Shown: positions 8,057 to 41,378 of the stretch, piece after piece
How the letters are laid out: each line of letters begins with the position of its first letter
How positions within the stretch are numbered: position 1 is the stretch's first letter
NCBI GenBank assembly: GCA_024278765.1
Contig: JAJRSM010000007.1
Location: 1-60,701 of the forward strand
Source: Deltaproteobacteria bacterium
GTDB taxonomy: Bacteria; Desulfobacterota; GWC2-55-46; DRQE01
Reading direction: 5' to 3'
Length of the DNA stretch: 60,701 nt
The notes under the pieces: generated by a model
Told to the model about the DNA's origin: nothing
Databases searched by the model: none
What the model saw: only the letters and a program-made list of their open reading frames with translations
Program-made: the position numbers and the translations under genes

Positions 8057-8084
8057 CTCAAGGTTAATGTTTTCTATAAAGACC

Positions 8085-23377: not shown

Positions 23378-23452
23378 TGGCTGGGGCGGCAGGATTCGAA
23401 CCTACGCATGCGGGGATCAAAACCCCGTGCCTTGCCGCTTGGCTACGCCCCA
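23378..23452 (-). tRNA. tRNA-Gln(TTG)
   Basis: TGGGGCGTAGCCAAGCGGCAAGGCACGGGG TT TTG AT CCCCG..GGTTCGAATCC..CCCCAGCCA; canonical ispE-tRNAGln-prs context. Confidence 0.96.
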
Positions 23453-23547
23453 ATAAAAGATCTTATAAAAGGGATCGCCCCTAACAACCACTTAAGTCCA
23501 TGCCCCTTGGCAACAAACCGTCTTTGATAAAAAAACCGGCTGCCAGA

Positions 23548-24435: not shown

Positions 24436-24587
24436 AGGAATATTAGCTGAAAAAATGGCATATAACAGGGTTAAGAACTTGATCTTCAGAGCGATCACCG
24501 CAGCGCAAGAAACACCTACTTTGTGCTTCTTGCCCCTCTAGCCCCATCGCCACACTATACACTATAGGTTAAACCCATCTGCCCGGC

Positions 24588-26465
24588 TTACTTTATTACA
24601 ACAAAAAAGAAAATATTTACCAATACAACCAGCCCGATAATTACGGCAAAGGCATAGTCGCGGACCATTCCTGTCTGGAAACGCCTGAGCACCCCGGCAA
24701 GACCGGTCATAAAGCCAGCCACCCCATTGACCAAGCCGTCTACGATACGCTGGTCAAACCTAAGGCTCTGCTTCGACGACCAGATCGAATAGGACGATGC
24801 ACTACGGGCGACCCACCTGACAACGCCGTCGATTACGTCATAGTCAAAGACAAAACATTTATTGGCTATCCACTGCCCGGGCCTGACAAAGAGCGGCATA
24901 TAGATCGTACTCACAACCGTATCAACAGGGGTAACAATGGTCTTTGCAACAAGCTGATAAAAGACCTTTGCGCCCTTACGGTAGATCCAGTCAAAGTCAA
25001 GGTTAATCATATGCTTACCCTTGATCATTTTAAGCAGCAGATAAAAGCCGAACCAGGTAAAGAGCATCAACTGTACGGTCCAGACGACATGGTCGATGGT
25101 ATACGGGCTATAATTACCACCGTATGGAAGCAAGCTGTAAAGCCCCTGCGGCCAGACACCGACGACAATACAGGCGATTGCAGCAAGCGTCATACCGATC
25201 ATCATATTGCGCGGCGGCTCCTGCTTTGGCACATCCAGATTCTTTGTCTTATCTTTACCGAAAAAGACAAGATAAGGCATCTTAAGCGTCGTCGAGAGGA
25301 ATGTACCGGCGGCAGCTATCATCAGTAAGATCCAGGGGATCGTCAGTTGCTGCTCGGCAGCAGCCGAGAGGATCATCGGTTTACTGGCAAAACCAGCAAA
25401 GAGCGGCGCACCGGAGAGGGCAAAGCCGCCTATCATAAAGAATATAAGGGTTATCGGCATCTTCTTATAGAGATTACCGGTATCTTTCAGGTTTCTCTTA
25501 CCTGTGACATATATAACCGAGCCAGAGGCCATAAAAAGCAGCCCCATATAGAGGATATGCGTAAAGCCCAGAGCCACGGCACCGTCTACGGCAAGCTTTG
25601 TGCCGATCCCTATACCGACGACCATGTATCCGATCTGACTCATAATATGATGGGCAAAGAGTTTACGCATATCCGATTCAACCGTAGCGTAGGCAACGGC
25701 GTATAGTGCCATAATAGCACCTATCCAGATAAGGATATCGGCCCCGGCAAAGCCCCTGACCAGCGCATAGACCGCTGTCTTTGTCGTAAAGGTAGCCATA
25801 AGAACACCACCAGGTATGGTTGACTCAGGGTAGGCATCAGGCAGCCAGCCGCCAAGCAGCGGGAAGCCAGCATTGATGGCAAAGCCCAGCAGTATCAGGC
25901 CTGTCGGCAGGGTCGGCCACCCTGAAAACTCCATAAGGTTAAAGGCAAGCGTGTGGTTCTCAAAGTAGTAAAGCAGTATCCCACCCATCAGTATCACGCC
26001 ACCGGTAGCATGGACGAGTATATATCTATAAGCGGCCTTATAAGAACGCTTGTTTTTATTAAATGTTACGAGGTAGACCGATGCAAAGGCCATTATCTCC
26101 CAGAAACACAAGAAAGATAAAAGGTCTCCTGCAAAGACCGCACCCAGAGCACTACCTGCGTAGAAGAAACCCGCGATATGATGGCCGTTCTCCTTCTGCC
26201 GCATGCCGTAGATCATGGCTATAAAGAGCATAAGCGTGAAGATAAAGGCAAAGCACTTGGCAAGCTTATCAACTCGCCCGAAGACGACCTGTTCATTTAA
26301 GAACGTATAGACCCCATACGTGCCTTCCGGCGTAAGCACTACGCTTATAAAGGCCAGCAGCGGCAAAAGCAGCAGATAGCCCTGCTTGATCTTTCCCTTT
26401 GGCATAAAAGGAATCAAAAGCGAGCCGATAATAACTATAAGTCCCGGGTGTACCCAGTTAATCAT
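24588..26465 (-). CDS. MrpD-type antiporter-like subunit with NuoL-like C-terminal helix/anchor
   Basis: WEIM, WLPDAYP, TTKT, SQIGYM, GFASK; C-terminus ends FQTGMVRDYAFAVIIG. Confidence 0.85.
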   Translation of the reverse strand: MINWVHPGLIVIIGSLLIPFMPKGKIKQGYLLLLPLLAFISVVLTPEGTYGVYTFLNEQVVFGRVDKLAKCFAFIFTLMLFIAMIYGMRQKENGHHIAGFFYAGSALGAVFAGDLLSFLCFWEIMAFASVYLVTFNKNKRSYKAAYRYILVHATGGVILMGGILLYYFENHTLAFNLMEFSGWPTLPTGLILLGFAINAGFPLLGGWLPDAYPESTIPGGVLMATFTTKTAVYALVRGFAGADILIWIGAIMALYAVAYATVESDMRKLFAHHIMSQIGYMVVGIGIGTKLAVDGAVALGFTHILYMGLLFMASGSVIYVTGKRNLKDTGNLYKKMPITLIFFMIGGFALSGAPLFAGFASKPMILSAAAEQQLTIPWILLMIAAAGTFLSTTLKMPYLVFFGKDKTKNLDVPKQEPPRNMMIGMTLAAIACIVVGVWPQGLYSLLPYGGNYSPYTIDHVVWTVQLMLFTWFGFYLLLKMIKGKHMINLDFDWIYRKGAKVFYQLVAKTIVTPVDTVVSTIYMPLFVRPGQWIANKCFVFDYDVIDGVVRWVARSASSYSIWSSKQSLRFDQRIVDGLVNGVAGFMTGLAGVLRRFQTGMVRDYAFAVIIGLVVLVNIFFFVVIK

Positions 26466-26670
26466 AGTAGTCCTCCTTACGTCTGAGGAAGAGATCGGCT
26501 ATCTTATTGGAAACGACTAAAAGCAATATAGTCGATGCAAAAGCAAAGAGCGCGTAAAAGGCAGGGATATTATCCCACCAATAATAGACGTGAGCTCTCG
26601 GCATAAAGACATCGATGACCAGCGATAGTCCCATTAGAAAGAACAAAACATATTTTATTTTATTAAACAT
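26458..26670 (-). CDS. Small two-TM membrane protein coupled to the antiporter-like subunit
   Basis: Two hydrophobic stretches, W.NIPAFY, ends RRKEDYYD; GTGAGGT RBS; overlaps next start. Confidence 0.75.
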   Translation of the reverse strand: MFNKIKYVLFFLMGLSLVIDVFMPRAHVYYWWDNIPAFYALFAFASTILLLVVSNKIADLFLRRKEDYYD

Positions 26671-26712
26671 ACCTGTTACCTCACCACATCAGCTACTAAA
26701 GACCGCCCGACT

Positions 26713-26778
26713 TTCAGGGCTTATACCCTCTTCAGGGCTTATACCCTCTTGAGGGCTTATACCCTCTCTTGAGGGCTT
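26713..26778. repeat. 18-bp tandem hairpin repeat x3.5
   Basis: TT(C/G)AGGGCTTATACCCTC at 26713, 26731, 26749, plus a partial copy. Confidence 0.9.
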
Positions 26779-28257
26779 TTAAACCACACCCACCAGGAAG
26801 GCCTCTATTATAGATATAAAGAAATGCGGATATATCCCAAAAAATACCGTTAGTACGGCCGTAATCGTAAGCGGAACGACGACAAAGGGCGGTGCCTCTT
26901 TGATCTTATCAAAATGAGGATCGCCGACAGGTGCTGGTTTAAAGTACGCCCTATAAATAATCGGCAGAAAATACGCTGCATTCAAGACAGTACTTGCAAG
27001 AAGCACCATCAGAAGCCCGACCGATTCGACCTCCATCGTACCCATAGTCCAAAACCATTTACTGGTAAAGCCTGCGACTCCAGGCACGCCTATCATCGAT
27101 AAAGAGCCGATAGTAAAGGCCGCCATAGTAAAGGGCATCTTCGTGGCTATGCCGTCGAGCTGATCGATTTTCTTGATATGCGAGGCGACATAGATAGAGC
27201 CCGCGCAGAAAAAGAGCGTAATCTTAGAGACCGCATGGTTACCGATATGCAAAATACCGCCAAGCGCACCGCTTGAAGACATAAGGGCTACGCCAAATAT
27301 TATATAGGCCAGCTGGCTTATAGTAGAATAGGCGAGCCTGGCCTTAAGGTCGTTTTTAGTAAGCGCAATAATAGAGGCAAGCGTAATAGTGATCGAAGCA
27401 AATATCGCCGTCGGTATCCCGAGGTTAAAGAAGTCCATGACCTCGTAACCATATACGCAGGTAAGAACTCTAACGACCGAGAAGACACCGACCTTAACAA
27501 CAGCCACGGCATGCAAAAGCGCACTGACCGGCGTCGGCGCGACCATGGCCCCGGGCAACCAGTTATGAAACGGCATAAGCCCTGATTTAGCAAACCCTGC
27601 AATAAAGCAGATATAGCTTATTGTTACCAGGAATGCCGGCATCCCGGTGTTATATATTCCGCCGACCTTAAAGTCCAGCGTACCTGTTGTCATATAAGTT
27701 ATGACAATGGCCGCAAGCAACGCGGTCTTTGCGAGCCCTACCAGATAGACTACATACTTGTGGCCGCCTGCAAATGCCGCATCGTCCTCATGATGGGCGA
27801 CCAGCGGATAGGTCGTAACACTTAATACCTCATAGAAGATATAGAGTACAAATAAGTTAGCACCAAAGGCAACACCAATGGCCGAGCAGATCGCTATGGC
27901 AAAGCAGCTAAAGTAACGGGTCTGACTTTTTTCCTTCTCGGCCCGCATATATCCGATGGAATAGGCCGTCGCTATTATCCACAAAAACGAGGCGATCAAG
28001 GCAAAGAAGACACCAAGGCCATCTACGCGCAGCTTAAACTCTATCCCCGGTAAGATGGTAAAGGCCGTATACTCTATTATCCCGCCCGACATTACAAACG
28101 GCAGCATGGAGACGACTATCAAGAAGGTAGTAATCGCTGCGATAAAGCTCCATGCCTCGCGCAGGTTCGGGCTCTTACTCGATAGCAAGATGAGTATTAC
28201 CGAGATAGCAGGTATAAGGGTCGCCAGTAGCGGCTTTATAGATACAATTGTTTCCAT
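26779..28257 (-). CDS. MrpD-family antiporter-like subunit
   Basis: FYEVL, PFHNWLPGAMVAPTPVSALLHAVAVVKVG, RLAYSTISQL, GFTSKW. Confidence 0.88.
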   Translation of the reverse strand: METIVSIKPLLATLIPAISVILILLSSKSPNLREAWSFIAAITTFLIVVSMLPFVMSGGIIEYTAFTILPGIEFKLRVDGLGVFFALIASFLWIIATAYSIGYMRAEKEKSQTRYFSCFAIAICSAIGVAFGANLFVLYIFYEVLSVTTYPLVAHHEDDAAFAGGHKYVVYLVGLAKTALLAAIVITYMTTGTLDFKVGGIYNTGMPAFLVTISYICFIAGFAKSGLMPFHNWLPGAMVAPTPVSALLHAVAVVKVGVFSVVRVLTCVYGYEVMDFFNLGIPTAIFASITITLASIIALTKNDLKARLAYSTISQLAYIIFGVALMSSSGALGGILHIGNHAVSKITLFFCAGSIYVASHIKKIDQLDGIATKMPFTMAAFTIGSLSMIGVPGVAGFTSKWFWTMGTMEVESVGLLMVLLASTVLNAAYFLPIIYRAYFKPAPVGDPHFDKIKEAPPFVVVPLTITAVLTVFFGIYPHFFISIIEAFLVGVV

Positions 28258-28269
28258 AATTTCCTTTTG

Positions 28270-29712
28270 CTAAATTATACTGGATGCAAGTCTTGCCAGA
28301 TCAATCAATAAAGTCGGATAGACGCCGTGCCATATAGTAACAACTACCGTCAGTAATATTACAAAATACAGGCACGCCGGCTTGAACATCTTAAACTCGC
28401 CGTCGGGCTCTTTCATATACATAACCATTATGACTCTGATATAGAAGTAGGCCGCGACAGAACTCATCAAAACGGCAAAGATCGCAAGCGGGACCATCCC
28501 CTGACTTAAGAGTGCCTTAAAGACATAGAACTTACCCATAAAGCCTGCCATCGGCGGTATCCCCGCAAGCGAAAAGAGTAAGATCATCATCAGGAGTGCG
28601 ACCAGTTTATTGGTCTTGCCAAGCCCCCTGTAACTATCTAACTGATCGATCCGACCATTTACCGATAACAATATTATTATGGCAAAGGCCCCGATATTCA
28701 TCACGGCATAGACGGCCATATAAAAGAGCACGCTTGAGACGCCCTCTGCCGTACCGGCGATAAGGCCAAGCAGCGCGTAGCCCGCATGCGCGATACTGGA
28801 GTAAGCAAGCATCCTCTTTATGCTCTTCTGACTTATAGCAACGAGGTTTCCGTAACCCATGCTAAGGACGGAGATGACGATCAGGATAATGACCCACTGG
28901 TCATATAAAGGTTCAAGACCGACCATAAAGACCCTAACCATTACGGCAAACGACGCGGCCTTGACTCCTACCGACATAAAGGCCGTGATAGGAGTCGGTG
29001 CGCCTTCGTATGCATCCGGGGCCCACATATGGAACGGCACTCCGGCGATCTTAAAGGCAAAACCGGCAACCAACATAACAATCGCGATACTCAGGGCCGG
29101 AACACTCGTTACCGGGTCTTTCAAGGCCACGGCGATTCCGGCCAGATCCGTAGTGCCGGTCAAGCCATAAATAAACGATATTCCATAAAGCAATATTCCC
29201 GAGGAGAATGCACCTAGGATGATGTACTTCATCGCACCCTCGTTGGACTTGCGACTGCTTTGCTTGAAGCCCGCCAGGACATAAACAGGTATACTCATAA
29301 GCTCAAGGCCGACATAAATAGTCAAGAGATCGACCGCCGAAGCAAGTATCATCATCCCGGTGAGCGAGAAGAGCATCAGGATATAATACTCGCTCATATT
29401 TATATCTTTAGTCTTAACATACTGGAAGGACATTAACATAACCAGCACGGTCGCAACGTAGAAGATCATCTTAAAAAATACCGAGTAGAGATCTATCTTA
29501 TGCATATCTGCAAAGAAGCTCCCGCCGGCCAGATCCCCGGAGGCAATACAATACGTAGCAATAGCAGCGGCGATAATAGTAACAACCGAGATAACGCCTG
29601 CCAGCCCGCTACACTTCTTGATTAGCGGATCCAGGACCAACAATATGCAGGCCACGGCAACGAGTATAAGCTCCGGCAAAAGTGCCAGAACATCTAAAAG
29701 ACTAAAGATCAT
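28270..29712 (-). CDS. nuoN: NADH-quinone oxidoreductase subunit N
   Basis: SNEGAMKY, FKIAGVPFHMWAPDAYEGAP, KRMLAYSSIAHAGY. Confidence 0.95.
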   Translation of the reverse strand: MIFSLLDVLALLPELILVAVACILLVLDPLIKKCSGLAGVISVVTIIAAAIATYCIASGDLAGGSFFADMHKIDLYSVFFKMIFYVATVLVMLMSFQYVKTKDINMSEYYILMLFSLTGMMILASAVDLLTIYVGLELMSIPVYVLAGFKQSSRKSNEGAMKYIILGAFSSGILLYGISFIYGLTGTTDLAGIAVALKDPVTSVPALSIAIVMLVAGFAFKIAGVPFHMWAPDAYEGAPTPITAFMSVGVKAASFAVMVRVFMVGLEPLYDQWVIILIVISVLSMGYGNLVAISQKSIKRMLAYSSIAHAGYALLGLIAGTAEGVSSVLFYMAVYAVMNIGAFAIIILLSVNGRIDQLDSYRGLGKTNKLVALLMMILLFSLAGIPPMAGFMGKFYVFKALLSQGMVPLAIFAVLMSSVAAYFYIRVIMVMYMKEPDGEFKMFKPACLYFVILLTVVVTIWHGVYPTLLIDLARLASSII

Positions 29713-31280
29713 TTAATGGCTCCGCTTGCTGCTACCGCGCCTACCTGCTCAACCAGGTTGTCGACCGAGACATGCAGCAGATTCAAAAAGTCCATTGGAT
29801 GAAGCCCTACCCAGAAGACAAAGACCAGGAATGCAAGGATAGGGATTAACTCTCTGATATTAATATCCTTGATAGTACCTTTCTTTGGTGCCGGGTACTT
29901 CGGTGGTGTCGTTACCCCGCCGTGCCCAAAACCCTCGACAGGTGTGCCAAAGGCGATCCTCTTATACATCCAGAGCATGTATGCCGCACCCAGTGCTATA
30001 CCAAGGATCATAAAGACGATGTAAATCTTGTGTGTCTCGTAAGCACCGATCAGGATCATCAGCTCTCCGATAAAGCCGTTTGTCCCTGGAAAGCCCATCG
30101 CAGCTATCGAGAACAAGAATAAGAAGAAGGCATAAACAGGTACGAGCTTAGATGCCCATCCGTAACGGTCCAGCATCCTCGTATGCGTCCTCTCGTAGAT
30201 CATACCGACGCAGAGGAAAAGTGCGCTAGTCGTTATACCGTGGTTAAACATCTGTAAGATACCACCCTCGATTCCGTTCTTATTCAGCAGGAAGATACCG
30301 AGCGTAACAAAACCCATATGACTGACGCTGGAGTAGGCGATAAGTTTCTTCATATCGGTCTGCGCCAGAGCCAGGAAGGCACCGTAAATTATCGCGATTA
30401 TAGAGAGTATACAGAGCGGGACGCTAAAGTACTGCGAAGCATCCGGGAACATCGGCAACGAGAACCGCAGAAAACCGTATGCGCCCATCTTAAGCAAGAC
30501 TCCGGCAAGTATAATACTACCTGCCGTAGGGGCCTGCACGTGAGCGTCCGGCAGCCACGTATGGAACGGGAAGGTCGGAACCTTTACGGCAAATGCTACA
30601 AAGAACAAAATAAAGATAAATACCTGGAACTCAAAGCCGTAACTAACTGCGGCCATCGCCTGAATATCAAAGGTCTGCCCTGCATGATAATACAGGATGA
30701 TAATACCAACGAGCATAAGGGTACTGCCGGCGAGCATGTATATAAAGAGCTTAATGGCGGCGTAAAGTTTATTAACCCCGCCCCAGATACCGATTATCAG
30801 GTACATCGGAATAAGCATCGCCTCCCAGAAGATAAAGAAGAGAATAATATCCATTGAGCAGAAGACACCTATCATAGCCGTCTGCATGATAAGGATAAGG
30901 ATCATAAACTCTTTGACCTTGGTAGTAATCGCCTTCCATGATGCCAGAATACAGACCCAGCCAATAAAGGCCGCTAAGAAGACCATCAGCACACTAATAC
31001 CATCGATACCCAAACTATAGTTAATGTTCAGGGCAGGAATCCACGAGACCTTTTCCACAAATTGCATACTGTGGGTCGTTGTATCGAATCGCAGGACTAT
31101 AAAGATACCTAAGAACAACTCCACCAGCGTAGTAATAAGTGCAACCCACTTAACCACATTATCGTTCATCCCATTTTTGTTCTTAATTAGCAACAACAGG
31201 GCGACGCCTATAAGCGGTACAAAGATTATGGTGGTCAGCAAATGTGAGCCGACAAACGGTATGTCTAGTATCCAGTTCAT
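29709..31280 (-). CDS. nuoM: NADH-quinone oxidoreductase subunit M
   Basis: FWEAMLIPMY, PFHTWLPDAHVQAP, LLKMGAYG, YSSVSHMG. Confidence 0.95.
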   Translation of the reverse strand: MNWILDIPFVGSHLLTTIIFVPLIGVALLLLIKNKNGMNDNVVKWVALITTLVELFLGIFIVLRFDTTTHSMQFVEKVSWIPALNINYSLGIDGISVLMVFLAAFIGWVCILASWKAITTKVKEFMILILIMQTAMIGVFCSMDIILFFIFWEAMLIPMYLIIGIWGGVNKLYAAIKLFIYMLAGSTLMLVGIIILYYHAGQTFDIQAMAAVSYGFEFQVFIFILFFVAFAVKVPTFPFHTWLPDAHVQAPTAGSIILAGVLLKMGAYGFLRFSLPMFPDASQYFSVPLCILSIIAIIYGAFLALAQTDMKKLIAYSSVSHMGFVTLGIFLLNKNGIEGGILQMFNHGITTSALFLCVGMIYERTHTRMLDRYGWASKLVPVYAFFLFLFSIAAMGFPGTNGFIGELMILIGAYETHKIYIVFMILGIALGAAYMLWMYKRIAFGTPVEGFGHGGVTTPPKYPAPKKGTIKDINIRELIPILAFLVFVFWVGLHPMDFLNLLHVSVDNLVEQVGAVAASGAIK

Positions 31281-31291
31281 TACATTAGCTC

Positions 31292-31594
31292 CTATCCTTT
31301 AAGCGAGTCCATATCATCTGAGTTCAATACACGCCTGTTCCTTACAAGCGCGATCAAAATACCAAGGGCAACGGCTACTTCTGCTGCCGCTACCGTTATC
31401 GTGAATATCGCAAATATCTGCCCTCGTATGTCGTCCAAATAGTACGAGAAGGCAACAAGATTAATATTAACCGAGTTAAGCATCAACTCAATCGACATAA
31501 GTACAATAATAATATTTTTCCTGAGCAGCACGCCGGCCACCCCTATCATAAAGAGGATTAGGCCGAGCCCTATAAACCAGGTAAGCGGTATCAT
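31292..31594 (-). CDS. nuoK: NADH-quinone oxidoreductase subunit K
   Basis: [18 protein letters not shown]. Confidence 0.95.
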
Positions 31595-31595
31595 A

Positions 31596-32099
31596 TTAGT
31601 TCCACCTCTTTTTAGCCATGATAATAGCCCCTACCATCGCAGCCAAGAGCAATACAGAGATAATCTCAAAGGGCAAGAGGTAATGAGTAAAGAGTGCCAA
31701 GCCTATTACCTCGACCGTTGTCTCTGCTCCTGCCTCTGCCATCTGCATATGCGCAAAGCTTTTACCAAAGATCACAATCAAGAATTCTATAGCCATCACA
31801 GGCAGTATCACGTAGACGGGCCACCGCTTAAGTCCGGGAAAGGTCTCAAGACTCGCCTTCTTAATATCCAGCACCAGAACCACAAAGAGGAACAAAACCA
31901 TGACAGCACCGACATAAATAAATATCTGCACCACCGCCAGAAAAGGCGAGCGCAAGAGAACAAAGATGGCTGCCACCTGCAAAAGGCAGACGATCAATGA
32001 AAAGGCACTGTGCACAGGGTTTTTAAAGCAGACGACCCCGCCTGCCGCAGCAATGGCTACGACCGCAAATAATATAAAAAATAATCTTTCTAAGATCAT
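31596..32099 (-). CDS. nuoJ: NADH-quinone oxidoreductase subunit J
   Basis: [24 protein letters not shown]. Confidence 0.95.
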
Positions 32100-32108
32100 A
32101 CCTTGTCC

Positions 32109-32774
32109 CTACTTGTCTTTATCCGGGTTGCCGTCACCGTTGTTATCACATTTGTCGTCACATTTTTTCGGTATCGGCCACCAGTAACTATCGCTCTTCT
32201 CAAAAAGATTACCCTTGACCTTAGGCCCGCTCTTGTTGCGCTCGTAACGTGCCTTAACGACCATCCCACCCTTAAAGTTCTCTGGGATCTGCTGGGGCTT
32301 CAAGAGCTGCTCTTTATTCCTGACAGAATCTTCAAGCTTTATGCAGGCAAGTTCATAGTCCCTACCGAGCCGTACCGCAGTGGTCGGGCAGGCATCTTCA
32401 CAATAACCGCAGAAGAAACACCTGGCCAGGTCAACGCGCCAGACCTTCGCGACTCTATCGGCTATGCCACGCCCCGTATCATCTTCCATCGGAACGACCG
32501 TGATGCAATCAGTCGGACAGACCTTTACGCAGAGCTCGCAGGCCACACAGAGCTCGCGCCCCTGCTCGTCTCTGTTGAGCGTATGCGCCCCCCTGAACCT
32601 CTGGTACGGTATCCATTTTTCTTTATCCGGATACTGCATGGAGATAGTACGCGTAAAGTTATAGCGAATAGTAAGCGACATCCCCTTAATAAAATCCACA
32701 AAGAGGGTCTTCTTAATGATATCCACCACACCCGGCGTATCGCGCTCGACAACTTTTATATAGTCTTTCTTCAT
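32109..32774 (-). CDS. nuoI: NADH-quinone oxidoreductase subunit I
   Basis: RFRG, CVACELCVKVCP, CFFCGYCEDACP; ATG at 32774 overlaps the nuoH stop (ATGA). Confidence 0.93.
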   Translation of the reverse strand: MKKDYIKVVERDTPGVVDIIKKTLFVDFIKGMSLTIRYNFTRTISMQYPDKEKWIPYQRFRGAHTLNRDEQGRELCVACELCVKVCPTDCITVVPMEDDTGRGIADRVAKVWRVDLARCFFCGYCEDACPTTAVRLGRDYELACIKLEDSVRNKEQLLKPQQIPENFKGGMVVKARYERNKSGPKVKGNLFEKSDSYWWPIPKKCDDKCDNNGDGNPDKDK

Positions 32775-33799
32775 ATTTTCATAAACCCTGTAACAAGGAC
32801 ATTTACCAGAGAGATCGGTATAAGTATCTTCCAACCAATCGACATTAGCTGATCAAAACGATAACGAGGTAACGTAAATCGTATCCACATAAAGACGTAT
32901 ATCAAAAACCCTGTCTTACCTAAGAACCACAAGATCGGCGGCAACCCTATATTTAAGGGATCATCCCAGCCGCCAAGGAAGAAGACAACGGTAAGCATTG
33001 CTATGGCGACCATCGCGACGTACTCGCCAAGGGCGAAGTACGCAAATCTCATTCCACTGTACTCGACGTGATAACCGGCAGCGAGCGAGCCCTCGTCCTC
33101 GGGCAGATCAAACGGTATCCTGTTCATCTCGGCGATACCGGCGATGATAAAGATAAAGAACCAGATCGGGCCAACCGGAAGATAGAATATATTCCAGTTC
33201 CAGAAACCGCCTGTCTGACTCTATACTATAGTAACCAGGCTCATTGAGCCCGACATCATCACAACACCAACGGCTGCGAAGGTCATCGCGATCTCGTAGC
33301 TGATCATCTGAGCTGCGGCACGCATCCCGCCCATAAGCGCGTACTTACTATTCGAGGCCCATCCGCCAAAGATTATTCCGTAGACGGCAAGCCCTGATAC
33401 CGCTAGCACATAGACCACGCCGACATTCATATCCGAGATCCAGAAGGTCAACTCATAGTCAATAATCGGAATCGTAATCGATGGGGCAATCGGGATGGTA
33501 ACAAAGATAGCGAAGATCGGAACCATCATAATGATAGGCGCGATCTTAAAGAGCCACTTATCTGCCTTATCAGGAACGATATCTTCTTTGAAGATCATCT
33601 TTATCATATCAGCCATTGCCTGCATAAGCCCGTGCGGGCCGACCCGCATAGGGCCAAGCCTTACCTGCATATGGCCGGCGACCTTACGCTCAACCCAGGT
33701 CAGAATAACTGGCGCACCAAATAGCAGCATGCCGACTACTCCTACCTTTATGCAAATAACCACTACCTGAAATAACAAATCCATATCTATAATATTCAA
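32771..33799 (-). CDS. nuoH: NADH-quinone oxidoreductase subunit H, interrupted by one in-frame TAG at 33221-33223
   Basis: ERKVAG..GP.RVGP.G, RAAAQMISYE, then *SQTGGFWNWNIF..AEMNRIPFDLPE continuing in the same frame. Confidence 0.9.
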
Positions 33800-33836
33800 A
33801 CTCAGATCCCTCTTACATTAACTAAGATCAAAAGAC

Positions 33837-34313
33837 TTAATAACCGCGTTTTCTGCCCCACATATAATTAAGCATATCCATATAACGGGTATTCATACTA
33901 CGAACAATAGCGTGTACTGTATAGACGATATTCTTTAAGAGCTTATATACGACCCAAGGATGATTATCAACAAGCCCCTCGAAATCATTACGGTCAAGCG
34001 TTAAGACCTCGATATCCGAGATCGCAACAAGTGTCGCCGAATGCGGACGGTCATCAAGGAAACCCATCTCACCAAAGATATCCCCGTCCTTCATCACGAC
34101 CAGCGTAAAGAGCTCGCCGTCCGGGGCGATCCGGCAGGCCTTGACCTCGCCTTTTTTAAGGACATAAAGCTTAGAGCCCTTCTCGCTCTCAGCGCAGACC
34201 GTATCGCCACGCTTGAACTCCTTCTTATGCAGAATCTCGGCGATAACAGCAAGCTCAGCGTCATCAAGCTCAGCAAAAAAAGGTATTGTTCTAATAATCT
34301 TTGGATCTACCAT
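33837..34313 (-). CDS. Stand-alone cyclic-nucleotide-binding (CAP_ED) domain protein
   Basis: IPFFAEL, LYVLKKGEV, GDIFGEMG, PHSAT; no HTH; GGAGG RBS before MVDPK. Confidence 0.88.
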   Translation of the reverse strand: MVDPKIIRTIPFFAELDDAELAVIAEILHKKEFKRGDTVCAESEKGSKLYVLKKGEVKACRIAPDGELFTLVVMKDGDIFGEMGFLDDRPHSATLVAISDIEVLTLDRNDFEGLVDNHPWVVYKLLKNIVYTVHAIVRSMNTRYMDMLNYMWGRKRGY

Positions 34314-34358
34314 GCTACTAACCTCCCCGACACCCCTCATTGGGCTCGGCTAATGGTT

Positions 34359-36875
34359 TTAAGACGTTATCTTAACCAGTGGTATTGTCTCGCCACGCTT
34401 GAAAAATCTATTTATCGGTTTATCCTCATAATTTTCTGCTATAAATACCACCCCAGCAGGAGTGCCCTTGCTAATCTTCAGGCGGAAACTATCGAGATAA
34501 CCCTCACTGGCGACATTAATATTCTGCCCGTCTTCTAGGCCCAAGGCCTTGGCAGTCTCAGGCCCTACCTCTGCCACTGGCTCTTTTAAAAGGCTACCAA
34601 GTATATCAGAATAAGAAGACAGATTGCCGGAATAAAAAAGATGATTTCCTGTTATAAGCCGCAGCGGATACTCCTCGGTTGGCACTGCCCCCGGGCTCTC
34701 TGCCACGTTAAAAAAGGCCTCAAGGCTAACGTCTGTAGAGATAACGCTGCCGCAGTCCTTACCTGTTGATTTATTATCGATATTCAGGTAGCTAGGCACT
34801 ACCTTCTGAATACAACCAAAGATATCCGTACAGCCGTCGTCCATAAAGCCCTTGGATACCGTTGATGCGATATCCCCCATAATATCAAGGTCAATACGCG
34901 CCCCGCCCGGAGGTGACTGAATCGGAGCAAGGTTCTGTACCCTTCCCACCTGATTGGTAAATGTCCCGGTCTTCTCACCGGCAAGAGCACCGGGAAGGAT
35001 CAGGTCGGCCTTTAGAGCCGTATCCGTCATAAAGGTCTCCTGAACAATCAGGAAGCCGACTTTGGACAAAGCATCTTCGGCAAAGGCCCTATCCGGATAC
35101 ATCCCTGCGATATCCTCACCAATTACATACATAAGATCCATCTCGCCGGCTGCCGCGGCCTCTAACATACCGTAGCAATCAAGACCTTTTTCATCATCAG
35201 AAAGAGGACTGAAGCCCGGACCAAGACTTGGATGAACGCCCATGCCCCACGCGCCACGCTGATTGGCCCTGTCGAGGATCGGCAGGATGCGAAGCCTCTT
35301 ACCCATCGCCTCCAGAGCGAGCTTTAAGAGCCTGAGCCCTCTAGCCCCTTGGTCGAGCTTTAGAATATCGGTTCCGGCCAAAATACTTATCGTCTCGGAA
35401 CGCTTTAACCTCATTGAGAGTTGGCGAAGTTCGTCTACGGTAACACCGGCAAGCTTCGCCAGTTCAGCGATAGAGACCTTACTGCTTAGTCCCACTTCCT
35501 CAAGACTTGCCAACCCGCCCGCATCACCTTCATAAAGACACAGAATAAGGGCGTTAAGAAACTTTGCCAGCTCACCGGGGGTATGCCTAAGAGACTGATG
35601 CGCCGTTGCGTCAAGCTTCATGGCACGAGGTGATACGATAACAAGGTTAGACCTTCCGCTATCGGTAACGTGCCTTACTATATAATCAATAACAGGGTTT
35701 TCTTCCGAAAGCTGCGTGCCCAGAACAAAGACGGTATCAGAGTTTACTGCCTTATAGATAGTCCGCCCACCTTCATTAATAGCCGTGGCAGCCATATAAG
35801 CCCCTGCCGTATCCCCAGACCAGCGTGAAGTGGAATCTAGGTTTGGCGTACCCATCGCCTCGCGCATCAGCTTTTGAAAAAAGAATAGCTCTTCATTAGG
35901 CAAAGACGCCGTGGCAACACCACCACGCTTCTCTGGCGAGGTCTTTGCGAACTCGGCACTTATCATGCCCATGGCCTCGGACCAGCTAATCTCCTCAAAA
36001 CCGTCGCCCTTTTTTCTAAGCGGCTTGGTAAGTCTCTTATCACTATTTAAAATATCATATCCAAAACGTCCTCTGGCGCACATCAGCCAGTCATTAAAAC
36101 CAAGGCCCTTAAAGGCAATAGAACGCACGACCTCGCCGTCACGTTCCTGCAAAGTAGTCTTACAGCCTGTAGCGCAGTACGGGCATACAGATATAGCACT
36201 CTTCAGATCCCAAGGCCTTGCCTTATACCTGTAAGGCAACCTCATAAAGCAACCAACAGGACAGACCTCTATACACATGCCACAGCTATCGCAATCAAGC
36301 TCGCCCTTTCTAAAGCTCGTCTCCTCCTGATAAGCCCCTCGCCCTACCGAGCCCAGAACGCCCCTGCCAACGACCTCTCGACAGACCCTGACGCATCTAA
36401 CACATTGCACGCACCTATTGGAGTTCTTAATAATAACAGGGCTTATTATATAGTCCTTCACGTGAAGGCTAATCTTTTTCTCTTCAAATTTACTCTTTCT
36501 CTGCCCGTGCGAATAGACCATATCCTGCAACTCACACTCACCGGCCTTATCGCAGACAGGGCAATCCTTAGCGTGGTTACTGAGGAGAAACTCAAGCATA
36601 GATCTTCTGGCCGATACAACAGTCTCGCTATTGGTAGCGATCTTCATCCCGTCCATAACAGGGGTTATGCAGGCAGGCTGAAGCTTTTTCTGCCCCTCAA
36701 TCTCTACTATACACATCCTGCAAGAGCCGATCCCGGAAAGACGCGCCTGATAGCAGAAAGTAGGTATAGTAACATCTACCTCTTTGGCCGCGTCAAGAAT
36801 AAGCGTGCCAAAAGGTACGCGGACCTCTTTACCGTCTATCTCAAGGATTAATTTATCGTCTACTGCTTCAACCAT
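34359..36875 (-). CDS. nuoG: NADH-quinone oxidoreductase subunit G
   Basis: IPTFC, CRMC, H..DCPVCDKAGECELQD, CVQCVRC, CPVG, CPYCATGC. Confidence 0.92.
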   Translation of the reverse strand: MVEAVDDKLILEIDGKEVRVPFGTLILDAAKEVDVTIPTFCYQARLSGIGSCRMCIVEIEGQKKLQPACITPVMDGMKIATNSETVVSARRSMLEFLLSNHAKDCPVCDKAGECELQDMVYSHGQRKSKFEEKKISLHVKDYIISPVIIKNSNRCVQCVRCVRVCREVVGRGVLGSVGRGAYQEETSFRKGELDCDSCGMCIEVCPVGCFMRLPYRYKARPWDLKSAISVCPYCATGCKTTLQERDGEVVRSIAFKGLGFNDWLMCARGRFGYDILNSDKRLTKPLRKKGDGFEEISWSEAMGMISAEFAKTSPEKRGGVATASLPNEELFFFQKLMREAMGTPNLDSTSRWSGDTAGAYMAATAINEGGRTIYKAVNSDTVFVLGTQLSEENPVIDYIVRHVTDSGRSNLVIVSPRAMKLDATAHQSLRHTPGELAKFLNALILCLYEGDAGGLASLEEVGLSSKVSIAELAKLAGVTVDELRQLSMRLKRSETISILAGTDILKLDQGARGLRLLKLALEAMGKRLRILPILDRANQRGAWGMGVHPSLGPGFSPLSDDEKGLDCYGMLEAAAAGEMDLMYVIGEDIAGMYPDRAFAEDALSKVGFLIVQETFMTDTALKADLILPGALAGEKTGTFTNQVGRVQNLAPIQSPPGGARIDLDIMGDIASTVSKGFMDDGCTDIFGCIQKVVPSYLNIDNKSTGKDCGSVISTDVSLEAFFNVAESPGAVPTEEYPLRLITGNHLFYSGNLSSYSDILGSLLKEPVAEVGPETAKALGLEDGQNINVASEGYLDSFRLKISKGTPAGVVFIAENYEDKPINRFFKRGETIPLVKITS

Positions 36876-36895: not shown

Positions 36896-38170
36896 TTAAA
36901 AGCCGCCCTTAACCATGCACCGGCCATTTTCAACGTGATAGACAAACTCTTCTCTGAAGTGCTTCAAGCAACCCCGCAAGGCCATCACAGCACCGTCACC
37001 AAGCGGACAGAAGGTACGGCCAAAGATATTGTCGCAGAGCCTTTCAAGCTCTTCAACATCCCCGGGACGCCCCTCGCCGTTCTCCATGCGTTCAAGTATC
37101 TGCGTCATCCAGATAGTACCCTCACGACACGGTGTGCATTTACCGCAGGACTCATGGCTGAAAAACCTATTGATTATATAAGATGTCCTTACCATACAGG
37201 TAGTATCATCCATAACAATAACAGCACCAGAGCCGAGCATGCTACCAGCCTGCGCCATAGTATCAAAGTCCATGGAAAGGTCCAGATCCTTTTCAACAAG
37301 CATCGGTGCCGTAACACCACCCGGGATCACGGCCTTGAACTTCCGACCAGCCTTTATGCCACCACAGACCTCATAGATTATCTCTCTGCCCGTTGTACCC
37401 ATCGGCAACTCATAGACGCCGGGCTTTTCAATATGACCGCTTACACAAAAAAGCTTTGGCCCCGGGCTCTTCTCAGGCCCCATATTCGCGAACCACTTAG
37501 AGCCCTTCCTGATAATCCCCGGAATACACGCCAAGCTCTCAACATTATTGATGACCGTAGGCTTACCGTTCAAGCCAGCAAGTGCCGGAAACGGAGGCTT
37601 CTTACGAGGCTGGCCCCGGTAACCCTCAATAGATTCCAGGAGTGCCGTCTCCTCACCACATATATATGCCCCGTAACCCCTGTGTACATACATATCAAGC
37701 GAGAAATCCGTGCCCATTATATTCTTACCGAGATAACCTTTTTCGTAGGCCTCTTCTATTGCCTGCTCCAGGATCTGCGCACCGTACTCAAACTCACCCC
37801 TAATATAGATATATGATTTATCCGAATTTATCGCATGGCAGGTTATAGCCATCCCTTCTATAAGTAGATGCGGATCTTTCTCAATGATAATCCTATCCTT
37901 AAACGTCCCGGGCTCACCCTCATCGGCGTTACAGCAGAGGTACTTCTGGAGTGACGGATCCTTCGGAATAAAGCTCCACTTAAGGCCAGCCGGAAAACCC
38001 GCACCGCCTCTACCACGAAGCCCCGAGTCCTTTACCAGCTGAACGAGATCATCTCGTCCCATAGCAAGGGCCTTACGAAGGTCTTCGTAACCACCACCGG
38101 CCAGATAGGTATCTAGCTTATGGGAGTTCGGTTTATCGACATTATGTAGGAGTATCTTTTCCACAGCCAT
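36896..38170 (-). CDS. nuoF: NADH-quinone oxidoreductase subunit F
   Basis: GRGGAGFP, NADEGEPG, YICGEET, ESCGKCTPCREG. Confidence 0.97.
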   Translation of the reverse strand: MAVEKILLHNVDKPNSHKLDTYLAGGGYEDLRKALAMGRDDLVQLVKDSGLRGRGGAGFPAGLKWSFIPKDPSLQKYLCCNADEGEPGTFKDRIIIEKDPHLLIEGMAITCHAINSDKSYIYIRGEFEYGAQILEQAIEEAYEKGYLGKNIMGTDFSLDMYVHRGYGAYICGEETALLESIEGYRGQPRKKPPFPALAGLNGKPTVINNVESLACIPGIIRKGSKWFANMGPEKSPGPKLFCVSGHIEKPGVYELPMGTTGREIIYEVCGGIKAGRKFKAVIPGGVTAPMLVEKDLDLSMDFDTMAQAGSMLGSGAVIVMDDTTCMVRTSYIINRFFSHESCGKCTPCREGTIWMTQILERMENGEGRPGDVEELERLCDNIFGRTFCPLGDGAVMALRGCLKHFREEFVYHVENGRCMVKGGF

Positions 38171-38637
38171 TACTCAAAACCATCCAGTATCTCTATTACG
38201 TTACGCTCGGTGAGATCCTCATAGAACTCTTCATTTACCTGCATCATCGGGGCTGTGCCGCAACTGCCAAGACACTGCACCCGAGAAAGCGTATACCGCT
38301 TATCCGCCGTGGTCTCACCGACCTTTATCTTAAGATGCCTCTCTATAACCGTTATGATATGCTCGGCCCCTACCAGAGCGCACGGCAGATTTTCACAGAC
38401 CTGTACGTGGTACTTACCAACAGGACGCTCGACATTATACATAGTATAAAAACCGCCGATCTCATCAAGCTCTATAGGCTTCATATCCAGCATCTCGGCG
38501 ATCTCAATAAGGTCTTCCTTAGTAAGATGACCGATCTCACGCTGAACTATCTGCATAGCCGTCATCGAGACCGAGTGCAGGTCAGAGTAATTGCCGTATA
38601 TCTTCTTTATTTTTTCTTTTGCGCAATCCGAGAGCAT
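38170..38637 (-). CDS. nuoE: NADH-quinone oxidoreductase subunit E
   Basis: FYTMY, CENLPC, CLGSC..AP. Confidence 0.95.
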   Translation of the reverse strand: MLSDCAKEKIKKIYGNYSDLHSVSMTAMQIVQREIGHLTKEDLIEIAEMLDMKPIELDEIGGFYTMYNVERPVGKYHVQVCENLPCALVGAEHIITVIERHLKIKVGETTADKRYTLSRVQCLGSCGTAPMMQVNEEFYEDLTERNVIEILDGFE

Positions 38638-38674: not shown

Positions 38675-39895
38675 CTACTTATCACATTCCCCAAATACAG
38701 GATCCAGACTCGATATGATAGCAACGACATCTGCCATATACTCGCCCTTTGCCAAGTGGTGCGTTGACTGAAGATTAACAAATGTCGGAGACCTGATCTT
38801 AAGCCTCTCGGGCTTTTCTCCGCCGTTACTCTTAATATAAAAACCAAGCTCGCCTTTAGGTGCTTCTATCGCGTGATAGGCCTCGCCTTCAGAAACCTTA
38901 AAGCCGTGCGAGACATATTTAAAGTGATGGATAAGTTCTTCCATATTGTTATAGACCTCGTCTTTTGGCGGAGGTACTATCTCCGGCATATCCACGACAA
39001 CAGGGCCTTCCGGGAGCTTTTCAAGGCACTGGCTTATTATACGTATGGTCTGGCGCATCTCGGCGATCCTTACCAGATAGCGGTCAAAACAATCACCTAC
39101 CGAGCCGACCGGGACCTCAAAGTCAAGCTTGTCGTAGATAAGATACGGCTCATCTTTACGAATATCCCAAGGAACACCGCTTGCTCGCAGATTAGGGCCA
39201 GTAAGCCCCAGATCAATCGCATCATTGGCAGAGACTATCCCGACATTCTTATTCCTCTTTATCCAAACCCTGTTGCCTGTTATAAGCCTCTCGTACTCAT
39301 CGATACGCTCGGGCATATACTCCATAAGTTCTTTGCATTTTGTAAGAAACTCTTCGTTTGCATCCCACCGCACGCCGCCGATCCTCATATAACTGAGCGT
39401 CATACGCGCCCCGCAGATCATCTCAAAGAGATCCATTATCATCTCTCTTTCTCTGAAGGCATACAGAAGCACCGTCATAGCCCCGAGATCAACGCCCCAC
39501 GCGCCGATACAGACCAGATGCCCGGCAAGCCTAGAGAGCTCGGCGCAAAGCACACGCAAGTACTGTGCACGCTCAGGGACCTCCAGATCCATTACCTTCT
39601 CTACTGCCAGCACATAGCCCAGATTATTGCTCATCGAGCTCATATAATCGAGTCTATCGGTATAAGGGACAAACTGATGATAGAGCAGGTTCTCGGCAAT
39701 CTTTTCGGTCCCTCTATGCAGATAACCAATATCAGGATCAGCCCACGTAACCTTCTCGCCCTGAAGACCCAGAAGCAGATGCAACACGCCATGCGCAGAA
39801 GGATGCTGAGGACCGAAACTAAGGGTCATCTCCTTAGTACTTACGGCCTCTTCGTCATCAAATTCATCTCGAATATTTTTTTTATCGTCTATCAT
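38675..39895 (-). CDS. nuoD: NADH-quinone oxidoreductase subunit D
   Basis: GPQHPSAHGVL, GYLHRG.EK, EAPKGE. Confidence 0.96.
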   Translation of the reverse strand: MIDDKKNIRDEFDDEEAVSTKEMTLSFGPQHPSAHGVLHLLLGLQGEKVTWADPDIGYLHRGTEKIAENLLYHQFVPYTDRLDYMSSMSNNLGYVLAVEKVMDLEVPERAQYLRVLCAELSRLAGHLVCIGAWGVDLGAMTVLLYAFREREMIMDLFEMICGARMTLSYMRIGGVRWDANEEFLTKCKELMEYMPERIDEYERLITGNRVWIKRNKNVGIVSANDAIDLGLTGPNLRASGVPWDIRKDEPYLIYDKLDFEVPVGSVGDCFDRYLVRIAEMRQTIRIISQCLEKLPEGPVVVDMPEIVPPPKDEVYNNMEELIHHFKYVSHGFKVSEGEAYHAIEAPKGELGFYIKSNGGEKPERLKIRSPTFVNLQSTHHLAKGEYMADVVAIISSLDPVFGECDK

Positions 39896-39915: not shown

Positions 39916-40428
39916 TTATCTTTCTTCGCCATTAGGGTTATATTTGTCTTTATATCCTCTAAGCGGAAAATCTTTCCTTAGCGGAAAACCATCAAAGTCC
40001 TCCGGCAAATAAATCCGCCTAAGATCCGGATGACCTTTAAATACAATCCCAAACATATCGTATGCCTCTCGCTCCGCCCAACCGGCACTGCGCCAGACCT
40101 TGGTCACGGAATCAATCTCTTCATTCTCTTTAACCCGTACCCTCAAGCGAAGCCTCAACCTACTTTCCATCGCCAGTAACTGATATATAACCTCAAAGCG
40201 CGGGCAGCTCTCGCCACTTTCCGCACCTATCAGATCACTCAAAGCATTCATCTTAAAGTCTGGCTCACTCTTAAGTGAATGGCAGACGCCGAGGATTGCT
40301 TCCTTTTTTATCGTATACGTCACCTCGGCCCTGACGCGGTCTACGACTGTACCGAGGATATCGGCAGCGAACCTCTTTTTAAAGGTTACGATCAGTGTAT
40401 TCTCTTCTAATTCCGTAAGCTCTCTCAC
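39916..40428 (-). CDS. nuoC: NADH-quinone oxidoreductase subunit C
   Basis: [27 protein letters not shown]. Confidence 0.95.
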
Positions 40429-40964
40429 GCGCCGCCACCTCCTCGCCTTCTAAGGAGTTCGGGGTTTTCCTTCCTGATCTTCTCCTGCAACTGCAAAAAA
40501 GCATAGAGTAGAGCGTCAGGGCGCGGAGGACAACCCGGGACAAATACATCAACAGGGATGACAAGCTCTGTACCCTGAACGACTGAATATGTATTATAAG
40601 GGCCACCTGCCGAGGCACAGCCGCCCATTGCGATCACCCAGCGAGGCTCTGACATCTGATCATAAAGACGCTTAACAGCCGGTGCTATCTTCTTGGTCAT
40701 AGTCCCGGCGACGACCATCACATCGGACTGGCGTGGAGAGGGCCTGAAGATTATACCCATCCTATCAAGGTCGTAACGCGAACAGGCCGTTGCCATCATC
40801 TCGATAGCGCAACAGGCCAGACCAAAGGTCAAGGGCCATAGCGAAGACTGACGCCCCCAACTGGAGACGGCATTCGTGACCGGATTCTCTCTAATCATCT
40901 GAGAGATTTGATCTAAGGTTGTAAACTGCGCTACACCTTCAACTGGATTACCTTTAACTAGCAT
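40425..40964 (-). CDS. nuoB: NADH-quinone oxidoreductase subunit B
   Basis: [22 protein letters not shown]. Confidence 0.96.
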
Positions 40965-41012: not shown

Positions 41013-41378
41013 CTACAGCCAATCAAGAGCGCCCTTGCCCCACGCATATACAAGTCCCACAGAGAGTATCCCGATAAAGACGAACATCTCTATGAAGGCT
41101 AGCGTTGCGATGGTCGGATCCCCAAGGATCACGGCCCACGGAAATAGAAACAAGGTCTCGACATCAAATAATATAAATAGGATTGCGATAACAAAGAAGT
41201 GGACTTTATAATGACCGGTATTGGACTCACCTTTACTCTCAATACCACACTCCCATGACGTAAGCTTCTCAGCATAGGGGTTCTTTGGTCTTACAAGTGA
41301 GCTGACAAACAGTACTCCAATCGCCACAACGGTGATGAAGCCTGTCATAAAAAGTACTGGCACGTAAGTAAGAAGCAT
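41013..41378 (-). CDS. nuoA: NADH-quinone oxidoreductase subunit A
   Basis: WECG, FDVETLFLFPWA, KGALDW. Confidence 0.95.
   Translation of the reverse strand: MLLTYVPVLFMTGFITVVAIGVLFVSSLVRPKNPYAEKLTSWECGIESKGESNTGHYKVHFFVIAILFILFDVETLFLFPWAVILGDPTIATLAFIEMFVFIGILSVGLVYAWGKGALDWL

Follow-up and report, generated by a model that had tools for sequence, protein, structure and literature searches.

The number of pump modules in complex I's membrane arm sets the number of ions moved per NADH, and hence near-equilibrium or reverse running of the respiratory chain. In the 2M complex I that Chadwick, Hemp, Fischer and Orphan are said to have described in 2018, the lateral helix, or strap, reportedly gains a module of ~26 residues per added pump, and several independent origins are reported. 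In green complex I, two Mrp-type antiporter-like subunits stand in place of NuoL (Yu et al., 2022, PMC9040806), a description repeated in part of a review (PMC7415380). Passages of the former paper note strap insertions without a matching extra pump, including one in a NuoL of Manganitrophaceae, and call a five-pump form unique to Manganitrophaceae (Yu, Chadwick, Lingappa and Leadbetter, 2022, mBio 13:e03421-21, PMC9040806). Here we describe a nuo operon from a Deltaproteobacteria bacterium (Desulfobacterota, GWC2-55-46, DRQE01), located in a stretch of 60,701 nucleotides (contig JAJRSM010000007.1 of assembly GCA_024278765.1, positions 1 to 60,701), hereafter the window. In this operon NuoL is replaced by two antiporter-like subunits, D1 and D2, with a small protein, S, encoded between them, which is the already published green complex I architecture; D2, however, carries an extra strap module beside only four pump genes.

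The operon probably encodes a complete and working green-type complex I, an NADH:quinone oxidoreductase with 14 subunits and four pump modules. A bolder reading of the extra module, to which we give a probability of roughly 0.3, is that the strap serves as a ruler built of modules and lengthens before pumps are gained: a selected spare module would stand ready for a new nuoM or D2, the window's genus would be a 'strap first, pump later' intermediate, and the transition from four to five pumps would have taken place at least three times in one order.

The D1-S-D2 trio and the strap of D2

Pfam and NCBIfam scans gave the operon order nuoABCDEFG, a gene for a cyclic-nucleotide (cNMP)-binding protein, nuoHIJK, nuoM, nuoN, D1, S and D2, with all genes of interest in the window on the minus strand. 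The features of the distal membrane arm, with protein lengths in amino acids (aa) and transmembrane (TM) helices numbered, are as follows.

29709..31280, minus strand: nuoM, single copy, 523 aa (TIGR01972, 606 bits; in the NuoM clade)
28270..29712, minus strand: nuoN, 480 aa (TIGR01770, 471 bits; in the NuoN clade)
26779..28257, minus strand: D1, 492-aa antiporter-like subunit (NF006236, 694.9 bits, cut-off 663; PF00361 and PF00662)
26458..26670, minus strand: S, 70-aa protein, two TM helices (matches no Pfam or NCBIfam family)
24588..26465, minus strand: D2, antiporter-like subunit of 625 aa that bears the lateral helix and TM16 (NF009310, 636.3 bits, cut-off 564, over residues 1-562)
24675..24992, minus strand: predicted lateral helix of D2, residues 492-597 (AlphaFold2 (AF2) helices 492-557 and 561-597, pLDDT 50-69)
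24777..24866, minus strand: extra strap module R1, D2 residues 534-563 (missing in 16 of 20 orthologues)
24687..24776, minus strand: strap module R2, D2 residues 564-593 (the copy common to all orthologues and NuoL)
24600..24665, minus strand: TM16 anchor, D2 residues 601-622 (AF2 helix 601-622; aligns with TM16 of NuoL)

The genes are closely packed: nuoM and nuoN overlap by 4 nt, the stop of S and the start of D2 by 8 nt, and the distances from nuoK to nuoM and from D2 to an ispE-like gene are 11 and 89 nt. A preliminary description of this stretch had reported the order nuoJ-K-M-N followed by genes for 492 aa, 70 aa (two TM helices) and 625 aa, an empty junction between nuoK and nuoM and four antiporter-like subunits, and in all of this it agrees with the gene calls and family scans.

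Its statement that a canonical nuoL is missing also held for the whole genome, a metagenome-assembled genome (MAG) of 2.23 Mb in 123 contigs, 100% complete (G000). No canonical NuoL (TIGR01974) was found in it, the best match scoring 203.7 bits against a cut-off of 407.5; D1 (196.7 bits) and D2 (157.9 bits) both fell below that cut-off, and a separate TIGR01974 match in D2 spans model positions 580-629. Canonical NuoL was found in 69 of the 101 sampled genomes of the phylum. Of the seven PF00361 genes of the genome, four lie in the window and the other three belong to an Mrp operon on contig C88 (locus L008, 6877-14509). That operon encodes MnhE, MrpF, MnhG, an MbhD/MbhE-like protein, MnhB and a NuoK-like MrpC, and continues with a 508-aa antiporter-like gene and a paralogous trio whose products measure 497 (NF006236), 73 and 603 aa (NF009310), the last being a D2 paralogue whose tail lacks the NuoL-type motif. 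The same type of operon is present in G001, G008, G009, G023, G029 and G030. According to the window's gene list, no mrpE, F, G, B or C stands beside the window trio, which is therefore not in the context of an Mrp antiporter. Since the C88 operon has a trio of its own and nuoL was found nowhere in the genome, the case that the preliminary description had set against itself, a canonical nuoL elsewhere with D1 and D2 belonging to a separate Mrp complex, does not apply.

The assignment to green complex I follows the protein families. The D1 and D2 of the window and their counterparts on Sinorhizobium meliloti plasmids all score above the cut-offs of NF006236 and NF009310. A tblastn search with D2 against plasmids matched 117 records, mostly from Sinorhizobium, Rhizobium and Ensifer, with 44.6% identity to the plasmid D2 of S. 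meliloti. On S. meliloti plasmid NZ_CP141214.1 the order is nuoJ, nuoK, genes for 487 aa, 84 aa and 586 aa, nuoM, nuoN and nuoA-G; the three products are annotated 'monovalent cation/H+ antiporter subunit D family protein', 'hypothetical protein' and 'Na(+)/H(+) antiporter subunit D', and the 487-aa and 586-aa proteins score 849 and 793 bits on NF006236 and NF009310. Members of the family were detected in 155 of 401 sampled genomes of the phylum, and those named here were inspected. Within the window's order, the arrangement nuoEFG-cNMP-HIJK-M-N-D1-S-D2 is the common form and recurs across it. The earlier suggestion of an independent, new route to a four-pump arm is therefore not upheld, the architecture being published and the S. 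meliloti trio belonging to the same equivalogs. A literature search found no description of this layout in Desulfobacterota.

The 30-residue repeat in the strap is real. FD motifs start at residues 540 and 570 of D2, a period of 30. Aligned without gaps, R1 and R2 give a BLOSUM62 score of 23, which none of 20,000 shuffles reached, and the next-best 30-mer in D2 scored 10 in the same comparison. Exactly the 30 residues of R1 are missing from 16 of 20 aligned nuo-linked orthologues of the order, so the duplication reported earlier is confirmed. The length of the linker, taken between aligned anchors from the end of TM15 to the start of TM16, differs among the families as follows.

Canonical NuoL (13 proteins): 77-80 residues
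Mrp-operon paralogues: 84 residues
Ordinary green D2, including S. meliloti: 90-92 residues
D2 of operons with two nuoM: 121 residues
D2 of the window: 122 residues

The helix is thus longer than that of standard NuoL, as had been proposed, and not equal to it in length. The AF2 model, whose confidence is low here, predicts R1 as a helix that is interrupted for three residues where R1 meets R2, and the hydrophobic moment of the first half of R1 matches that of R2. The closest relative contig (L071, UOEZ01000085.1) has the gene order of the window and proteins 86-91% identical to its products; R1 is identical at 27 of 30 positions between the two, whole D2 at 86.7%, and dN/dS for D2 is 0.079/1.0, that is ~0.08. 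Conservation of R1, the low dN/dS, the helix and the matching hydrophobic moment argue against a decaying leftover; from these comparisons R1 looks functional and D2 appears to be under strong constraint.

Strap length and pump number among relatives

Every repeat-less relative with a countable operon has one nuoM (12/12: G009, G029, G021, G017, G005, G025, G028, G010, G011, G008, G013 and S. meliloti); in a further five repeat-less genomes (G006, G020, G002, G016 and G007) the contigs are too short for nuoM to be counted. The preliminary description had explained the duplicated helix as a lineage-specific adaptation that holds a fourth pump in a NuoL-less complex I. The linker of 122 residues against 77-80 in canonical NuoL is in line with that idea, but all 12 four-pump relatives, S. 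meliloti among them, do without the duplication at a linker of 90-92 residues, and the architecture was already published, so that we give this explanation almost no credence.

A second nuoM accompanies the repeat in all five other countable repeat-bearing genomes of the order (G003, G004, G012, G140 and G150). In family f1, G003 (L023) and G004 (L022) have the order K-M-M-N-D1-S-D2 and a 614-aa D2 with a 30-residue repeat; in G012 (L068/L067/L015) the D2 is of the same kind, and fragments of two nuoM lie on short contigs. Family f7 has the trio in the nuoL slot and a 26-residue repeat in D2, and G140 (L060 and L069) and G150 (L062 and L070) show two nuoM followed by nuoN; in G148 and G130 the sequence breaks off behind the first nuoM. 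The repeat is also present in G191, probably with two nuoM, spread over two contigs. Five-pump operons of the green type therefore occur in Thermodesulfobacteriota, beyond Manganitrophaceae. Counting L071, where a recent duplicate of D2 takes the place of the second nuoM, six other lineages combine the repeat with a fifth antiporter gene.

The window departs from this pattern in having the repeat with one nuoM and no second D2. In the same-genus genome G001, nuoB to nuoK are followed by one nuoM and nuoN, and the D2 contig is colinear with 26704-23375 of the window, with ispE directly after D2. A 20.4-kb contig from another run covers 23400-24445 and 24573-33896, thus bridging ispE-D2-S-D1-N-M-K-J-I-H, and its only difference in layout is an intergenic stretch of 171 instead of 127 letters; two shorter contigs from other runs also bridge ispE and D2. 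None of the sequencing runs contained more than 0.10 of the sampled words, and these contigs, which come from relatives of mixed likeness, were used for bridging only. A search of the genome contigs with D2 alone returned just one near-identical and one unrelated match. That a second nuoM or D2 was collapsed or lost during assembly is conceivable for a MAG in 123 contigs, the more so as L071 does have a second D2 directly downstream. Against this, G001 shows K-M-N with one nuoM and D2 followed by ispE, the 20.4-kb contig and the two further contigs span the locus, and the PF00361 genes of the whole genomes (seven in G000, six in G001) include no extra copy, which makes such an artefact highly improbable. 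In three independent assemblies of the window's genus a long strap thus goes with four pump genes, an exception that is not due to faulty assembly. An unrelated second example is G088, which belongs to another family of the phylum: its 11-subunit operon (L074/L076; nuoABCDHIJK-D1-S-D2-M-N, without nuoEFG) encodes a 609-aa D2 with a 26-residue repeat, yet only one nuoM, and its other PF00361 genes lie only in a hydrogenase-like cluster. The gene after nuoN in G088 was considered as a membrane partner and rejected, as it encodes formate-tetrahydrofolate ligase.

L071 gives the order of events in a sister lineage. Its region 4429-8384 contains D2L (622 aa, with the same repeat), 308 nt with a decayed copy of S, D2s (592 aa, without R1) and ispE. 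Between D2L and D2s dS is 0.16 and evenly low along the gene, whereas it is ~1.0 between the window's D2 and either copy, which places the long strap before the recent duplication of D2. D2s keeps residues of the R1 type directly ahead of the FD motif and is of the R2 type behind it, a pattern that fits deletion of one module from a D2L-like parent. So, judged from these divergences, the long strap predates by far the extra D2 gene in the L071 lineage.

Phylogenetic analysis of D2 (25 rows, with the repeat columns and the partial row of G007 left out) placed the repeat in three separate positions: in G003, in G004 with G012, and in the window. G003 adjoins the repeat-less G013 of the same genus, and the window is sister to the repeat-less G008 (99/95) and then to the repeat-less G009. 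The two nuoM copies of G003 are each other's closest relatives (97/89), beside the single nuoM of G013, and its strap modules are identical to each other at 19 of 30 positions; in G003, pump and strap module look like a recent paired duplication. The separate positions in the tree, together with the different position of the insert in Manganitrophaceae, indicate that lengthening of the strap by tandem duplication of the same unit happened repeatedly. R1 of the window is identical to R1 of other lineages at 7-10 of 30 positions and to their R2 at 9-11 of 30, which for the window fits a single origin as well as several. Both nuoM and D2 of the window lie on long branches in the trees, and the membrane arm of the genus has clearly been remodelled.

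The same observations bear on a second explanation, in which a five-pump ancestor, with a second nuoM or D2, lost the pump gene and the extra module is a leftover. The constant company of repeat and second nuoM in the five other countable genomes speaks for such a loss, as do the sister position (88/96) of the G004 and G012 clade, with its repeat and two nuoM, to the clade that holds the window, the long branches of nuoM and D2, and the loss of Lys and His from TM11 of D2 (detailed below). The nearest relatives G008 and G009, however, have neither repeat nor second nuoM, which would require more events; no gene remnant is seen in the 11 nt between nuoK and nuoM, the 4-nt overlap of nuoM and nuoN or the 89 nt between D2 and ispE; R1 has stayed 27/30 identical across a dS of ~1 at a D2 dN/dS of ~0.08; and the window's R1 is no closer to other R1 (7-10/30) than to R2 (9-11/30). 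We therefore regard a vestigial module as rather unlikely.

Core, tail and partners of D2

D1 contains the PF00662 N-terminal domain typical of NuoL and MrpA and ends after TM14 with no lateral helix. D2 goes on beyond TM14 with TM15, then a long helix and finally one more TM helix. Using positions of the central axis verified against the E. coli K-12 sequence, D1, NuoM and NuoN were found to carry the expected charged residues; those of D1 are NuoL-like (Glu in TM5, Lys in TM7 and TM8, His-His-Lys in TM11 and Lys in TM12). In D2 the TM5 Glu, TM8 Lys and TM12 Lys are kept, and the position of the TM7 Lys is Asn throughout the D2 family (60/60 rows). The AF2 model of D2 had a mean pLDDT of 84.8 and a pTM of 0.80, with the core above 90, and its best fold matches were MrpA (7qru_A, 6z16_A), NuoL and NdhF. 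The closest sequences of solved structures were the 618-aa MBS chain 6u8y_X for D2 and MbhH/MrpA for D1.

A tree of the cores of 44 antiporter-like proteins, made by a quick method that leaves the deep branches unresolved (support <80), put D1-type and D2-type proteins each in a fully supported clade of its own, outside the NuoL plus MrpA (97), NuoM, NuoN and MrpD clades. Within the D1 and D2 clades, copies from nuo operons and Mrp operons interleave. The rows of this tree include the clusters L077 (G004), L078 (G088) and L079 (G140), which comprise genes for 684-704 aa and 482 aa (PF00361), a NuoH-sized gene and a gene for 524-550 aa; these were dropped as canonical Mrp operons, their gene sizes and neighbours being Hyf-like, and by the same features they look like membrane modules of the Hyf/formate-hydrogenlyase type. 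The tree separates D1 and D2 as families without placing their origin, and 'MrpD-type', as both subunits had been called, is an annotation label rather than a phylogenetic placement: the core family is indeed common to Mrp operons, with the D2 family shared by group-3 Mrp/Mbx-type modules, but D1 and D2 lie outside the MrpD clade.

The C-terminus of D2 reads FD..(I/V)DG.VNG ... QTG....Y followed by a terminal TM helix and aligns with the tails of 12 canonical NuoL, at a mean identity of 36.5% (range 28-40%), in agreement with the NuoL-type motif and TM anchor described before; the resemblance to the strap end and TM16 anchor of NuoL extends over some 60 C-terminal residues. Over the last ~53 aligned columns, nuo-linked D2 are 34-42% identical to the 12 NuoL tails against 25-29% in the core, while for Mrp-operon paralogues the values are 11-16% in the tail and ~27% in the core; nuo and Mrp paralogues of D2 share 51-56% of the core and 20% of the tail. 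This discordance between tail and core fits the idea of a chimera, put forward for this gene in the preliminary description. The part of that idea which stands is a NuoL-like tail on an Mrp-family core; the tail is common to all green-type D2, those of rhizobia among them, and is no peculiarity of the window. From the alignments, the tail may either have been swapped in from NuoL or have been shaped by the same docking surface.

S is kept in every inspected D1-D2 pair, in nuo and Mrp operons alike. An alignment of 22 homologues shows a WD.(I/V)P motif and an EDYYD-like C-terminal end, and a protein atlas contained only unnamed 'hypothetical protein' clusters for it. Modelling of an S-D2 complex gave ipSAE values of 0.70, 0.70 and 0.73 (median 0.70) against 0.00 for the best control; of 80 solved complexes 58 reach the mark applied to complex models, as do 2 of 110 mismatched pairs. 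At least 98% of contacts agreed between runs, with a partner pLDDT of at least 78. The modelled contacts on D2 fall at 257-262, at 367-390 and at 456-497, the last stretch being TM15 with the first part of the lateral helix, which supports the prediction that S binds D2 at TM15 and the root of the strap.

A partner might also be encoded elsewhere in the genome, the extra module docking a membrane protein in trans; the 508-aa MrpD-like subunit of C88 would be one candidate, a member of some other protein family another. The genome does contain a full Mrp operon of the group-3 type, which adds three antiporter-like genes, and the D1 and D2 families are common to nuo and Mrp operons with copies interleaving in the trees. 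The repeat-less G008, G009 and G029, however, carry the same Mrp operon, whose presence thus does not track the repeat, and no test pointed to a specific partner; we consider docking in trans improbable.

The remaining genes of the operon are the following.

41013..41378, minus strand: nuoA (PF00507, E 1.8e-33)
40425..40964, minus strand: nuoB (PF01058)
39916..40428, minus strand: nuoC (PF00329)
38675..39895, minus strand: nuoD (PF00346, E 5.9e-122)
38170..38637, minus strand: nuoE (PF01257)
36896..38170, minus strand: nuoF (PF01512 and PF10589)
34359..36875, minus strand: nuoG (PF13510, PF10588, PF22117 and PF00384)
33837..34340, minus strand: protein of 167 aa with a cyclic-nucleotide-binding domain, between nuoG and nuoH (PF00027, E 1.7e-23)
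32771..33799, minus strand: nuoH, with one in-frame TAG at 33221-33223 (both halves match PF00146, model positions 5-163 and 167-297)
32109..32834, minus strand: nuoI, true start probably further downstream (4Fe-4S dicluster domains; aligns with nuoI of relatives)
31596..32099, minus strand: nuoJ (PF00499)
31292..31594, minus strand: nuoK (PF00420; NF004321 above cut-off)

Codon 193 of nuoH (33221-33223), TAG in the window, is GAG (Glu) in the same-genus G001 and encodes Arg, Lys or Ser in relatives; the TAG may reflect an error in sequencing, variation between strains or a genuine nonsense mutation. The gene for the cNMP-binding protein was present between nuoG and nuoH in all 14 nuoEFG-type operons of relatives in which that junction was covered. 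Its 167-aa product, made up of the cyclic-nucleotide-binding domain and nothing else, may be a regulatory or accessory subunit, and a literature search found no description of a cNMP-binding protein at this place.

The long strap and comparison with known complexes

Judged by the solved structures of complex I and Mrp, the membrane arm would hold four pump modules, N, M, D1 and, at the distal end, D2, whose lateral helix would run back along the other modules and be anchored by TM16; S is modelled as packing at the root of the strap. With four modules, on a hypothesis from the literature, one ion more would be moved in each cycle than by canonical complex I. The strap itself is modular, with a unit of ~26-30 residues (~45 A if helical) that was tandem-duplicated repeatedly in evolution. 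We favour a longer strap that works in the four-pump enzyme, where it may follow a longer path or anchor further along the arm, and this long-strap state would also be the starting point for five-pump enzymes. If the window does encode a working four-pump green complex I, the chance that the spare module both has a role there and served as a pre-adaptation is slightly below even.

Several observations weigh against a working four-pump enzyme whose strap ran ahead of its pumps. In the window lineage only, D2 has Met at residue 307 (~25545-25547) for the TM11 Lys (K in 120/124 rows), a position that aligns with K342 of E. coli NuoL, and Leu at residue 299 (~25569-25571) for the TM11 His (H in 118/124 rows), and given these losses D2 may no longer pump. 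The assembly has the in-frame TAG in nuoH. Confidence of the AF2 model in the strap and tail is low, with a pLDDT of only 50-69. Ordinary green D2 of four-pump enzymes has a strap just ~12 residues longer than three-pump NuoL has, which indicates that strap length is not simply scaled to pump number. In L071, D2s has a dN/dS of ~0.38 and Gln in place of the TM8 Lys (K in 59/60 rows) and may be decaying rather than a working fifth pump, and the contig starts inside nuoM, so that a further nuoM could lie beyond its end. The literature yielded neither structure nor biochemistry of any green complex I.

Three points appear to be new: a D2 of the green type whose strap has an extra module while the operon has four pump genes, one order of vent bacteria with four-pump, five-pump and mismatched forms and recent transitions among them, and a small subunit that is conserved and predicted to lie against TM15 of D2. 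A literature search, with the founding papers and supplements outside its reach, found no paper on the four-pump long-strap D2, the mixed-form order or S. Green-type and five-pump enzymes have so far been discussed for rhizobia and manganese oxidisers only, and this hydrothermal-vent order of Thermodesulfobacteriota offers a natural series in which strap length could be tested as a determinant of pump number, and S as a needed assembly factor for the D1/D2 pair. From the window alone the gain is modest because its architecture is already published.

Compared with known systems, the operon is nearest in composition to the rhizobial green complex I, with which it shares two Mrp-type subunits in place of NuoL, nuoEFG within the operon and a small gene between D1 and D2. 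In rhizobia, however, the trio lies between nuoK and nuoM (J-K-D1-S-D2-M-N-A..G) with H and I on the other strand, D2 has 586 aa without the extra strap module against 625 aa in the window, and a CBS-domain gene stands beside nuoG where the window's order has the cNMP-binding gene. The rhizobial gene order, with the trio in the nuoL slot and nuoA-G after nuoN, is not that of the window, but the trio does occupy the nuoL slot in family f7 of the same order, in G088 and in G191; gene order varies within green complex I and is treated here as not defining.

The group-3 Mrp and MBS/MBH modules (PDB 6u8y, 6cfw, 7qru, 6z16) are related through D1, S and D2, paralogues of which end the mrpEFG-(MbhD/E-like)-B-C-D operon of the same genome; they differ in that the tail of the Mrp-operon D2 lacks the NuoL-type motif, while the window trio sits inside a nuo operon. 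With the 2M complex I, in which a true NuoL reportedly bears the strap beside a second NuoM, the window shares an extra strap module, here of 30 instead of ~26 residues and in D2, not in a NuoL, which is missing from the window; nor is there a second nuoM, the window, G001 and the bridging contig each showing one copy. A counterpart of the long strap is Complex_I_3 of Manganitrophaceae, described in parts of PMC9040806 as having green-type D1 and D2, an extra lateral-helix module of ~26 residues in D2 ('MrpD2'), two nuoM and five pumps. The window has the lengthened strap but one nuoM and only four antiporter-like genes, and in the alignment the 26-residue insert of the Manganitrophaceae D2 (620-621 aa) follows the conserved motif, whereas that of the window precedes it.

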